Shown: in pieces, positions 9,957-14,570 of the stretch
Position numbering within the stretch: position 1 is the first letter of the stretch
How the letters are laid out: each line of letters starts with the position of its first letter
Source of the DNA: Theionarchaea archaeon
Lineage (GTDB): Archaea; Methanobacteriota_B; Thermococci; Methanofastidiosales; SZ-28-30
DNA length: 64,000 nt
Direction of reading: 5' to 3'
NCBI GenBank assembly: GCA_018992685.1
Contig: JACVGT010000011.1
Coordinates: 96,001 to 160,000, forward strand
Program-made: the position numbers and the translations under genes
Notes under the pieces: generated by a model
Told to the model about the DNA's origin: nothing
Databases searched by the model: none
The model's input: the letters and a program-made list of their open reading frames with translations, nothing else

Positions 9957-10331
9957 ATGTACTCACAACAGGTTATAGATCATTTTAACAACCCGCGTAA
10001 CCAGGGTCGCATGGAGAATCCAGACGGAGTGGGAAAAGTGGGAAACCCTGTGTGCGGAGATGTCATGTATATCTACATTAAGGTAAAGGATGATGTCATA
10101 CAGGACATTTCTTGGGAAACGATGGGGTGTGCTGCGGCTATTGCAACTTCCTCTATGATCAGTGAACTGGCCAAGGGCAAAACACTGGATGAAGCAGAGA
10201 AGATCACTAGGGGTGACGTGGCAGATGCGTTACAGGGATTGCCTTCAGTGAAGATGCACTGTTCAAACCTGGCGGCTGATGGTCTCCGGAAAGCAATTGA
10301 GGACTACCGGAACAGGAGGGGAATGGCATGA
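9957..10331 (+). CDS. iscU: Fe-S cluster scaffold IscU/NifU
   Basis: MYSQQVIDHFNNPRN.G, GNPVCGDVM, GCAAAIATSS, KMHCSNLA. Confidence 0.95.
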   Translation: MYSQQVIDHFNNPRNQGRMENPDGVGKVGNPVCGDVMYIYIKVKDDVIQDISWETMGCAAAIATSSMISELAKGKTLDEAEKITRGDVADALQGLPSVKMHCSNLAADGLRKAIEDYRNRRGMA

Positions 10332-11500
10332 GACAGGTTTATCTGGATCATTCTGCAACCAGTGCAGTAGATCCCCGGGTCATTGAAGTCATGATGCCTT
10401 TCTTCGACGTGAGATATGGGAATGCTTCGTCTCTGCACACAATGGGACAGGAAGCCAACAGAGCATTGGAGGATGCCCGAAAAACTGTGGCCCAGAAGCT
10501 GCACTGTACCCCTGAAGAGATAATTTTTACCTCAGGCGGGACAGAATCCAATAATGCAGCATTCAAAGGCGCAGCCTTCACTCGGTTGAGAAAAGGGAAG
10601 AAGGGGCACATTATCACCTCTACCATTGAGCATGATTGTGTGCTGAACACATGCCAGTGGCTGGAGAGTCTGGGGTTTTCTGTCACATATTTGCCGGTGG
10701 ATAACTATGGATTGGTTTCTCCTGAGTCTCTGGAAGATGCCATCACGGGAGACACCATCCTGGTCTCCATCATGCACGCGAACAACGAAATTGGAACCAT
10801 ACAGGATATCAGAGAACTGGCCCACATTGCTCATGAACGCGACGTCTTGTTCCATACTGATGCAGTCCAGAGTGTTACTAAGGTGCCTGTTGATGTACAG
10901 GAGATTGGTGTAGACCTGCTTTCAGTGTCCTCTCACAAGATTCATGGACCCAAGGGTGTGGGTTGCCTCTATGTTAAGAAGGGGACGACTGTTGATCCTC
11001 TACTGCACGGGGGAGGGCATGAAAAAGGGTTCAGATCTGGAACGGAAAATATCCCCGGTATTGTGGGATTTTCAGAGGCTCTTGCCATTGGTGAAGAGGA
11101 AAGACCCAGAGAGATGCCCAGAATTGAAAGATTACGCGATGAGCTGATAGATGGTGTTTCAATCATAGAGAATTCCTGGTTGAATGGACACCCGAAAAGG
11201 AGACTCCCAATCAATGCACACTTCTGCTTTAGATTCATTGAAGGGGAGAGTCTTGTTCTTCGATTGAGCGGGAAGGGTATTTATGCTTCTACAGGCTCAG
11301 CCTGTTCCTCAAAATCGCTGAAGCCCAGTCATGTACTTCTGGCCATTGGGCTCCCGCCTGAAGATGCGCACAGCTCTTTGCGGCTAACTCTGGGGAGAGA
11401 CAACACTGAGGGCGATATTCAGTATACACTGAAAGTATTGCCTGAAGTAGTAACTGATCTGAGAAAAATCAGTCCATTCAAGGCTTCATTTCAAGAGTAA
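10328..11500 (+). CDS. iscS: Cysteine desulfurase IscS/NifS
   Basis: YLDHSAT, SGGTESNN, SSHKIHGPKG (PLP Lys), STGSACSS. Confidence 0.95.
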   Translation: MRQVYLDHSATSAVDPRVIEVMMPFFDVRYGNASSLHTMGQEANRALEDARKTVAQKLHCTPEEIIFTSGGTESNNAAFKGAAFTRLRKGKKGHIITSTIEHDCVLNTCQWLESLGFSVTYLPVDNYGLVSPESLEDAITGDTILVSIMHANNEIGTIQDIRELAHIAHERDVLFHTDAVQSVTKVPVDVQEIGVDLLSVSSHKIHGPKGVGCLYVKKGTTVDPLLHGGGHEKGFRSGTENIPGIVGFSEALAIGEEERPREMPRIERLRDELIDGVSIIENSWLNGHPKRRLPINAHFCFRFIEGESLVLRLSGKGIYASTGSACSSKSLKPSHVLLAIGLPPEDAHSSLRLTLGRDNTEGDIQYTLKVLPEVVTDLRKISPFKASFQE

Positions 11501-11612
11501 CACGATCGTATTTTTGGTGAAAATCACAATTAACAATGAAAATATTACAATCAATTCGGAAAAAAATGATGACAACCGAAAAGTTTATATAGGGGTATAC
11601 CTGTAGTAGATC

Positions 11613-11800
11613 ATAGCACAGCCAACACTGCAAGCAGGAGCCAACATTTCCTCCTTGATCGTTGGTTCTTTCGCCACCCCCGAATTGGCTAACAAGAAGA
11701 GCATTTGAAAACACGATCCAGCCAATCTCTGAAGGGGTGGTGAAAGACCAAGAAGTCGTGGCTCAGAACCTCCGGGCCACGACTCAACTTCCTTTTTTTC
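11613..11800 (+). ncRNA. Candidate structured non-coding RNA (~190 nt), family unknown
   Basis: BRE/TATA ccgaaaag-tttatata at 11576-11591; stems 11667-11680/11734-11747, 11684-11690/11720-11726, 11754-11764/11774-11784; T7 tract at 11793-11799; no plus-strand ORF in the track. Confidence 0.55.
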
Positions 11801-12415
11801 TGAACGATTGAATTTTATGTGATTGATCTTTGCGAGAATAATTTTCAATACACATTGTCTTGTCTGACATGAATGGAACTCTGGAGAATTCTATGTTGCT
11901 CAAAATTCCTTTGTCAAAACTCAGACATCTCCCTAAATAGGGAAGGTGAAAGAGATTTATAAACAGAAAAAGAACGTGGGCCGTAACAGAAGGTTTAAAT
12001 GCAAAATGAGAGAAAAAGAAAACTGAATCCCATTTACCTTAACTGAATCTGTGAAATCACCATCTGAAAGTACTGGAACAACATTTCCGCTCCCTCTTCT
12101 GGAATCTTCTTACTTGGATATGGTGAAGCTCAAGAGATTGAAATAACAAGGTCATGACCTAGCGTGTCACCTTGGATACGAGAGCTGGATTGAGTGGATC
12201 GAGGTGCCGGGAAACATTATTGATGTTGATGTCCTAGAGAGAAGGGTCAAATGCCCATATAGCCACATGAAACGTGTTAAAGGACGAAAGTAGATGTAGC
12301 ATCTGGGAGATGGGTTTCTGAGACTGTGGGCCCTGCAAACAGAGATACTGGCGGCTTCATGGACATGGTTTCGGAGAGTGCAGCGGAAGATTTGCGGAAC
12401 TAGAGAAAACTGTGG

Positions 12416-14056
12416 TTAAACCATATAAGCCAGCCATTTGGCTGTTTCGGCGTCTGTAATCAGTGTTCTCACCAATCCTCCTCTAATAGCACCAAGTATT
12501 GCTTCCTTCTTTTCCTTTCCTCCTGCAATAGCGATGAGATTGACGCCAGGTCTTTCTGCAACTTCCTTCAGATCTTCAGCACTAAACGCGAAAAACTGAT
12601 CATAGTACTGTCCCAAGTACTCCCTCTGATCCTCTGATAGACTGTCTTTCATGAGGAACTGGCCGTCTTTGTTATACAGATGGAAGTTGATTTCTCCGAC
12701 AACGTCCATTTCCTTTAGCTTGTCTGGAGTTAGATTAGCCTTATCAAGAACGTAGGCAACGTTTGCACTTGTAGTAGTCGGCTGTCCAATTCCAAGGAGA
12801 AAGATGTCAGATCTCTTGGCCAATTCGAACGTCTTGCTGGCTTCCTTTCGAGCTGCATCAATGACCTTCCCACGGATTTCAGGCTCGAATACAGTAGGAT
12901 CAAGGTTAGGAAGGCGGTGAGCAAGAATGTTATCTCCAGTTATCTTTATCCTCAGCGGATCTGTCAACATATTGGCATCTATAGGTTGGGCAATATCGGA
13001 GAGGAATGCATTTAGTGGAAACACATCGATGTTATGCAATTCGCTTTTGTTCATCTGTGATATCGTATTGTACAAAGTTCTTCCGCAGCTAATCGAAATC
13101 TTGAAACAATTCTTGAGCTGCTGGTCTAAATACCTTGCTGCCTCAAATGCAAGGCTTTCAAAAGATGAGTCATTGGCAATTCTGACCACTTGAAGTCGGT
13201 AATTCGAATATTTCTTGGCAAGATCACTTTCAATTTTCTTCTTTTTTTCTTCAGTGAGAATTTCGACTCCCGAATGGGTCAAAGCAAGACTCGGTCCTCT
13301 CAGCCAACCTATCAGGACTGGATGCTGTTCATCATTGGATATTTTGGGAATTTCATTTGACAAGTAAAGCCAGAGTTCGTCTAGATCAACGGCTTCGTCG
13401 TCTCGAAGATCTGCTTTGCCCGTGAGTCCCTCAATCAAACAATGGCTTAGAATCCCATGGCCAATTCTACTGCTTTCTTTTGCCAGTTCATTGCACTCGC
13501 ATGCGGTAATAATTGCTCTTCCAACTCCAAAGGCATCCCGAAGGAATGATTCTCCAACTGGGTATCTCTCAACTTCCCTATACCCATCTTTTAGGAAAGT
13601 TCGTCCGCCAGCTGCACCACTATAACAGCAATCAAGTGTTACAATCGTCTTTTCTGATCTTATTCTGTCGAGTTGAGCTGCAAAGAACTTGAAATCTATT
13701 GCAGACGCAATGAGATTGTCAACATCTGTGTCACAGGGCGCAAGATACTTTGAAAGGCGATCATCTTGATATCCCTGAACTTCATCATGTTCATGGCAAC
13801 CGTGACCTGAAAAATGGATCAAGACTGTGTCGTTTTCTTGTACGCTACGTTGCATTTCTCTAATTTTTCTCAGTATGTTCCCCCTTGTAGCATTTTCGTC
13901 CACAAGAAGCGTAACATTTTCTGGAGAGATGCGCCAATAGCTCAAGTCATTAAGTACCTCATGGAGCATCTTGGCATCCTCTCTCGCCCAACTAAGAGAA
14001 GGAATTCTCTTATCTTTGTATTGATCTATTCCTATGATTAAAGCATATTCTCCCAT
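12416..14056 (-). CDS. Caspase-like peptidase (C14) fused to a SorC/DeoR-family sugar-binding domain
   Basis: YALIIGIDQY, FSGHG (His), LDCCYSG (Cys); C-terminal ISCGRTL, FLLGIG, VGEINFHLYNKDG, IAIAGGKEKKEAILGAIRGGLVRTLITD; RBS aaggagg. Confidence 0.85.
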   Translation of the reverse strand: MGEYALIIGIDQYKDKRIPSLSWAREDAKMLHEVLNDLSYWRISPENVTLLVDENATRGNILRKIREMQRSVQENDTVLIHFSGHGCHEHDEVQGYQDDRLSKYLAPCDTDVDNLIASAIDFKFFAAQLDRIRSEKTIVTLDCCYSGAAGGRTFLKDGYREVERYPVGESFLRDAFGVGRAIITACECNELAKESSRIGHGILSHCLIEGLTGKADLRDDEAVDLDELWLYLSNEIPKISNDEQHPVLIGWLRGPSLALTHSGVEILTEEKKKKIESDLAKKYSNYRLQVVRIANDSSFESLAFEAARYLDQQLKNCFKISISCGRTLYNTISQMNKSELHNIDVFPLNAFLSDIAQPIDANMLTDPLRIKITGDNILAHRLPNLDPTVFEPEIRGKVIDAARKEASKTFELAKRSDIFLLGIGQPTTTSANVAYVLDKANLTPDKLKEMDVVGEINFHLYNKDGQFLMKDSLSEDQREYLGQYYDQFFAFSAEDLKEVAERPGVNLIAIAGGKEKKEAILGAIRGGLVRTLITDAETAKWLAYMV

Positions 14057-14570
14057 TTCAATGCCTCCTTTGGGACCAATCTGTTCATATTTGCGTTGCT
14101 TTGTGCACTACTCTGAATTCTGGAAACAGATTTTCCCTCATACCCAACAACCTTTTCATCACTTCTCGAGTATCGAGAATTGATTTGGCGCATTCTTTGT
14201 TTTGCTCAAGATTCTACTTCTTCGTGTTTTTAGGCGTCTTTTTTGCCCTGTTCTTATTTGAATGTATTGTCTTATAAGGCTTTCTATGCACTTCCTGCAG
14301 ATTTTTTGAGTGTCTTTTTATCTATTCAATGATCTTAGATCTTACATCGATATGAAAGAATAATCCTCAGGTACCAGAAACAGCTTTAGGATATACAAAG
14401 CAGACTGAACGAATAGAAGACAAATAGAAATGACAAAAGGAAGAATTTTGATCCAGATGGTGCCAAAGAAGAAGAAAACAAACAAGTTCCTTCAGCACGA
14501 GATCTCTTGAAATTTTCGCCCCTGTCTGTTCGTCTGAACTTGCTGGGTTACCTCCCTATCTTTTCAGCTT

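Follow-up and report, generated by a model that had tools for sequence, protein, structure and literature searches.

Bacteria are already known to use small RNAs to neutralise other small RNAs, and RosA of Bacillus subtilis and RsaI of Staphylococcus aureus are two such RNA sponges (PMC8216469). In the sections of that study that bear on our comparison, they are stand-alone small RNAs with a regulated promoter and a terminator of their own, in which G-rich, Shine-Dalgarno (SD)-like regions are the complement of C-rich, anti-SD stretches in other small RNAs, and RsaI possesses a C-rich region of its own (PMC8216469). The small RNA A and its siblings, which we describe here from Theionarchaea, are alike in this anatomy, and A carries a C-rich region as RsaI does. 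They differ in being archaeal, in numbering several siblings per genome and in reaching complementarity to a 31-nt loop by different routes. Moreover, whereas the main regions of RosA are described there as single-stranded (PMC8216469), the G-rich core of A is predicted to be locked by an inverted copy of itself. The likeness that we propose is functional, with binding by the family predicted and no sequence homology claimed.

Other described RNAs resemble A in part. As presented in the relevant portions of their reports, sRNA162, sRNA154 and sRNA41 of Methanosarcina mazei are likewise intergenic, of similar size and endowed with a segment complementary to ribosome-binding sites (PMC3510493, PMC5867862), whereas no target was found for the segment of A, the common element of its family is a copy of the SD and not its complement, and A has no match in Rfam. 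RrrR(+)/RrrR(-) of Sulfolobus acidocaldarius illustrate an archaeal noncoding RNA kept in duplex by a complementary RNA, although the partner is described there as a reverse-complementary stabilising RNA (PMC5961385), in contrast with the family of A and its candidate partner, an anti-SD hairpin RNA family that we call H, which are separate genes with partial complementarity. CreT RNAs, small RNA toxins, share with the family a strong SD followed by a stem-loop (PMC8501985, PMC10097628). Our search of the full-text literature, a body that excludes most subscription papers, screened by title and by the opening of each abstract, returned no archaeal RNA sponge; neither “sponge” nor “decoy” occurs in the text of a review of archaeal small RNAs, and no small-RNA study of this lineage was found by title.

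A predicted small RNA gene downstream of iscS

The window that we analysed is a stretch of 64,000 nt of a Theionarchaea genome, hereafter G000 (contig JACVGT010000011.1). An earlier note on it had proposed an orphan promoter-terminator unit encoding a highly paired RNA, and the sequence contains each of the elements named: BRE and TATA motifs at 11576-11591, a 14-bp stem (11667-11680 with 11734-11747), a 7-bp stem (11684-11690 with 11720-11726), an 11-bp hairpin (11754-11764 with 11774-11784) and a tract of seven T (11793-11799). The stem pairs that depart from Watson-Crick pairing are G-U on the plus strand, and no plus-strand open reading frame of at least 60 aa follows the promoter. An Rfam 15 scan of the whole window at the gathering score returned two tRNAs only, leaving A unmatched, and at E ≤10 it added two weak matches, both outside A; the loci of the siblings and of H gave no match besides RNase P and tRNAs lying at other positions within them. 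The folding check was equally favourable to the note: region 11600-11800 has a z score of -4.93, with none of 200 shuffles as good, the predicted transcript (11615-11799) one of -4.71 (0 of 200 dinucleotide shuffles) and the homologue in genome G002 one of -5.36. Fold energy cannot decide the strand because the reverse strand folds lower (-74.6 versus -67.3 kcal/mol), and we assign A to the plus strand on account of its promoter, its U-tract and the point where conservation begins.

Conservation is high at the promoter, where the BRE and TATA box (11573-11591, plus strand) are nearly invariant across five aligned promoters of A and its paralogue B, low from the TATA box to position 11614, and returns at 11615. 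Since this return lies 31 nt past the first TATA base, in agreement with the TATA-to-start spacing that we take to be typical of archaeal promoters, we place the start there, giving a predicted RNA of 185 nt (11615-11799). It begins with a domain (11615-11661) in which 45 of 47 positions are invariant among four homologues and which contains a weak hairpin (11631-11657). Next comes an inverted copy of the core (11667-11690), which provides the 5' strands of both the 14-bp and the 7-bp stem and is found in none of the sibling types B, C and D. A large A-rich loop (11691-11723) follows, with two short invariant motifs (11703-11709 and 11716-11723) also present in B, then the family core (11731-11761), made of an SD-like octamer (11736-11743) and its flanks and complementary to the H loop, and finally the 3' hairpin (11754-11784) and U-tract, which, judging from the alignment, are likely a terminator (11754-11799).

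In the alignment of the four A homologues, 98.6% of 148 cells pair, against 36-54% in slid controls, and the pairing of the inverted copy is preserved through compensatory and one-sided changes. Three of the 40 pairs carry changes on both sides, and the main pairing measures are reached by 17-23 of 500 shuffles. Among five sequences, the base of the 3' hairpin is invariant and its upper part has changes on both sides. Together, these measures support the fold of A, though four related sequences underlie the test. We consider with high confidence that A is a conserved, stand-alone and uncatalogued archaeal small RNA gene, probably transcribed from the plus strand, as the note had suggested. Four RNA runs, of six on record, gave no match at 80% similarity, a blank that counts neither for nor against transcription.

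A 17-bp imperfect palindrome, likely an activator site, lies at 11545-11561, exactly 11 nt upstream of the BRE, a spacing identical in all six A and B promoters and also in C. A pattern combining palindrome and promoter, derived from the six RNA promoters of genomes G000, G001 and G002, has zero-mismatch matches only at those same six, and a matrix of the palindrome has 33 matches in the genome, among which two RNA promoters rank first and third. A shorter palindrome (11517-11527), alike by eye in the six aligned promoters, is a weaker candidate for a second site.

A is preceded by a cysteine desulfurase gene, iscS (10328-11500, plus strand; Pfam PF00266), and it sits behind iscS also in G001, in G002 and in a metagenome contig (L165). 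In G003, which belongs to the family's other genus, IscS-like matches at L049 (G003:C30:11814-12962) and C7:22768-22920 each contain one in-frame TGA, which could represent selenocysteine, a broken gene or an error. On its other side, A adjoins the left edge of an insert of ~2.8 kb (11800-14570, minus strand) that lies outside the RNA unit and carries a gene fusing caspase (Peptidase_C14, PF00656) and SorC-like sugar-binding (PF04198) domains (12416-14056, minus strand). This insert has a lower GC content (0.42), and its flanks are devoid of long frames. The note had placed the RNA on the same insert as the caspase-SorC gene, which the contiguous G002 locus contradicts: in that single contig the hairpin of A ends 54 nt from the EamA stop codon, with no caspase gene between and no counterpart of the insert, whereas ~2.8 kb including the caspase gene separate them in our window. 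G001 is uninformative because an assembly gap falls at the junction. The caspase-SorC protein was found in one of four genomes of the taxonomic family, this one. A, present behind iscS in four Theionarchaea sequences, is therefore older than the insert. Its position at the insert edge could suggest a MITE, an insertion-sequence end or a piece of the insert itself, a reading that we regard as extremely improbable given the orthologous site behind iscS in the four sequences, the insert-free G002 locus, the single close copy per genome, with no dispersed near-identical copies, and a promoter anatomy of the regulated type.

A multicopy RNA family in a single genus

Five of the 15 loci of the family are in G000. 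They comprise four A (this window, G001, G002 and L165), two B, one C and eight D-type loci. B (G000:C18 and G001:C49) is a shorter paralogue with the promoter, core and terminator of A but without the ~60-nt insert from which A derives its anti-SD hairpin and the 5' halves of its long stems. C, found in G002 with a covariance model, has three SD-like tracts. D-type units, of ~80 nt and with a different upstream element, were recovered by profile search and follow-up. G000 and G002 have three each and G001 has two; those of G000 (C6:11716-11804, C21:915-1001 and C27:76111-76199, all on the minus strand) have in common an upstream promoter element unlike the A/B/C palindrome. An archaeal RNase P RNA gene (L319:4483-4786) lies ~1.7 kb from the C6 unit. 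All 15 loci have the SD-like octamer followed by a terminator hairpin and U-tract, and in most of them a weak masking hairpin precedes the octamer. Elsewhere in G000, near-identical hairpins (C6 near 25216 and C22 near 5670) end a small duplicated gene, and each adjoins a helix-turn-helix-like gene, named by eye.

The family appears to be confined to one genus. The A/B covariance model matches three of 121 genomes of the class, all of that genus; the D-type model has clear matches only in G000, G001 and G002, all others being at E 0.016 or worse, and no family search matched G003 (91% complete). Pattern scans gave at least 120 metagenome matches, with L165 the sole true homologue among the 120 listed, so that others may exist, 52 matches in a genome collection (three true, all from G001 or G002) and five in a viral collection, none of them true. 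Sequence comparison gives us high confidence that these loci form an uncatalogued, multicopy and covarying noncoding RNA family with a candidate operator.

An SD followed by little else may recall a gene that has lost its coding part, and the loci could be leftover mini-genes or leaders, or messages for tiny peptides. In four of seven D-type RNAs an AUG lies 3 nt past the octamer, and in the G002 homologue of A one lies 5 nt past it; however, A of this window, B and the other D-type RNAs have no start codon at that position, which is variable in D, and comparisons of A, B and D-type RNAs revealed no start codon or frame common to members. Small frames on either strand of A are not conserved among homologues, since an insertion of one base in G002 or a stop codon in L165 interrupts them, and compensatory changes preserve the structure. 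This origin seems to us very unlikely. CreT-like RNA toxins, with SD, start codon and hairpin, would account for the anatomy that the family shares with CreT, A then being a self-neutralised or antitoxin form, and the inverted strand of A could bind the B core in trans (predicted -31.4 kcal/mol). We find it harder still to accept, and consider it highly improbable: the parts of the CreT literature that we compared (PMC8501985, PMC10097628) describe an efficient start codon as required, and the family has no conserved start codon or mini-ORF, no tandem rare codons common to its members and, at the loci examined, no neighbouring creA, cas genes or arrays. Even taken together, the mini-gene, CreT-like and mobile-element readings are decidedly unlikely.

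G000 does have two CRISPR-Cas loci with different repeats (C26:19254-33750 and C7:142371-146625), their cas genes identified by visual inspection, and at C22:3160-3350 a mini-array of three copies of the C7 repeat, with no cas gene evident nearby. We attribute to coincidence a hairpin common to A and to CRISPR leaders of contig C26. We also discarded A as a CreA or mini-CRISPR guide; the distance from its handle-like motif (11703-11709) to the next conserved block varies between 4 and 9 nt.

The invariant 5' domain and its anti-Shine-Dalgarno hexamer

The note had further envisaged a switch in which an alternative hairpin displays an anti-SD loop. The 8-bp pairing invoked (11638-11645 with 11661-11668) can be drawn on paper, but its predicted pair probability is at most 0.005 and it is lost in G002 and L165, so that we reject a two-state switch. 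In the preferred fold of A, the anti-SD hexamer (11650-11655), invariant in the four homologues, is instead masked by pairing with a purine tract (11636-11640) at a probability of 0.72-0.99, and opening the hexamer or the whole 5' domain is predicted to cost 3-6 kcal/mol. On the minus strand of an intergenic region upstream of the A-type ATPase operon promoter (G000:C6:95780-95900, L359), a sequence resembles this domain, differing at three of 20 positions; G001 has the region at 80% identity, and G002 gave no match to it. Two other gene-less promoter-terminator units of G000 contain anti-SD segments (C1 near 245480, plus strand, and C23 near 9189, minus strand), the first of which shows no match to the siblings.

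These properties could make A mainly a direct repressor of translation, its opened 5' domain masking the RBS and start codon of messenger RNAs, with the long stem and core as a scaffold inherited from the family. Such a mechanism has been demonstrated in archaea, according to the relevant parts of PMC3510493 and PMC5867862, and the invariance of the domain, the low cost of opening the hexamer, a matching purine-rich site at 17 called gene starts and the several other anti-SD RNA candidates in the genome all agree with it. Yet the preferred fold has the hexamer paired, this 5' domain is missing from B, C and D, and when five segments of A and B were compared with start regions, using crude gene calls of our own and no accessibility term, none exceeded shuffles; in one subsample, real duplexes reached -20.7 at best, and eight shuffles on it gave -18.6 to -23.3. 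We thus rate direct repression as the main function of A unlikely. The 5' domain was also discarded as a partner of the 5' part of B (p 0.16-0.37).

Complementarity between family cores and the H loop

H has nine copies (L396-L404) in three of 34 genomes of the order, the same three that contain the sibling family: G000 has four of them, G002 three and G001 two. Those of G000 are located at C12:61150-61480 (minus strand), C1:1-100 (plus strand) and C11:30950-31050 (minus strand), the C1 and C11 copies having a variant 3' loop end. The H loop is predicted to open at 2.1 kcal/mol. We confronted it with a 50-nt core window of each RNA, keeping the octamer fixed and shuffling the flanks 300 times. 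Contiguous complementarity was significant for A of this window (p 0.003) and low in p value for the other A (0.007, 0.010 and 0.063), for B (0 of 300 shuffles, and p 0.017) and for C (p 0.023), whereas it was not significant for any of the eight D-type RNAs (p 0.14-0.48).

Comparison with gene starts refines this picture. Thirteen gene starts contain the octamer of A of this window, and none of them pairs better with H than this A does; nine of 202 other anti-SD sites match the pairing of H with this A. The B seed is stronger against the H loop than all 63 strong-SD gene starts, and the extended B motif occurs three times in the genome, namely in B and in two H antisense strands. C and the G002 homologue of A match the 5' half of the loop with bases downstream of the SD, three D RNAs do so with bases upstream of it, and in either case none of the 63 gene starts is stronger; the other five D-type RNAs have no second arm to the loop, and the seed arm of A alone is weaker than 41-57 of the 63. 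In all, A, B, C and three of the eight D-type RNAs exceed the controls in G-rich complementarity to the H loop, and the best argument that this pairing was probably selected is that siblings reach different parts of one loop.

Several features bear on how these values are to be read. About 1% of 2738 gene starts pair with the H loop as well as A or B, because the complement of a generic start region is similar to this loop. H was taken as partner only after the sequences had been inspected, and the co-occurrence and the p values of individual homologues are not independent, since the three genomes are close kin. The H loops are nearly invariant across copies and so offer no intermolecular covariation. 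Two-strand folding with H brought a gain of -6.3 for C, -0.5 for B and none for A and D, in a calculation that cannot model closed-loop binding. C fits the variant H copies exactly, a match that we discount because the pattern was devised after the fact and a search of the genome of C yielded none of those copies. The anti-SD unit of G000:C1 near 245480 was rejected as a second partner, A ranking only in its best 20-35%.

The ribosome itself could offer another target for an SD-like core. CsrB-type RNAs titrate CsrA, and the family could similarly be decoys that titrate 30S subunits or an SD-binding repressor protein. The SD-like core is the one element common to the 15 loci, C has three such tracts, and the SD starts 33-35 nt past the predicted start in all seven D-type RNAs scored. 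Seven scored D-type cores pair with the 16S rRNA tail of the genus more strongly than 97-98% of 2268 gene starts, which puts them in the top 3% of SD strength, and those of A and B more strongly than 80-86%; the invariant loop motifs could serve as protein sites. By contrast, complementarity to the rRNA operon, the SD excepted, does not exceed shuffles, no set of messenger RNAs with the same SD hairpin was found, the core of A is locked, and the extra complementarity to H is not predicted by titration, which we therefore regard as rather unlikely. A two-segment pairing of A with the 16S 3' end was weakened and not retained, because the loop motif at 11716-11723 fails to pair at one of the genus 16S bases beside the tail and no rRNA complementarity exceeds shuffles. 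The 3' ends of all 17 16S rRNAs found in the order (L338-L354) differ from the query pattern at one and the same base, just before the anti-SD tail.

A candidate RNA sponge with a core predicted to be locked

The explanation that we tentatively favour, at somewhat less than an even chance, is that the family members are RosA/RsaI-like RNA sponges neutralising the H RNAs of the same genomes. As a sponge should be, A is a stand-alone noncoding gene with a predicted promoter and terminator of its own. Types A, B and C would be activated by a dedicated regulator at their 17-bp palindrome, the family cores would pair with the open H loop, and messages blocked by H would be translated again once H is bound. 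Type A would be a self-locked version, its inverted copy keeping the core within the long stem. Opening the octamer is predicted to cost 12-21 kcal/mol in A, against 2.5-9 in B and D, and net binding of the seed to H is predicted to be unfavourable in A (+1.8 to +7.9) and favourable in B, C and D, where the binding region is also predicted to be accessible. Because the inverted copy locks the core, A would need to be unlocked, by processing, a helper protein or strand invasion, or would act via its 5' domain. In a 3' fragment of A the predicted opening cost falls to 7-10 kcal/mol, so processing or breakdown of the 5' part could free the core. A also carries an invariant anti-SD arm, like the dual-function RsaI, and this domain may function independently, which PMC8216469 describes for the C-rich region of RsaI. 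The sponge model leaves the invariant 5' domain and the two loop motifs of A unaccounted for.

Should the sponge interpretation fail, an uncatalogued, covarying and multicopy noncoding RNA family with a candidate operator would still stand. The two RNA families, with their predicted base pairs, lend themselves to tests in vitro and in Thermococcus, with no need to culture the organism. With less confidence than the sponge function itself, we propose as a possibility that Theionarchaea possess a two-layer circuit, in which H would damp SD-led translation and SD mimics under two promoter classes would titrate H, with A held latent. If true, such a circuit would be the first RNA-sponge network in archaea, and one predicted purely from genome sequences.
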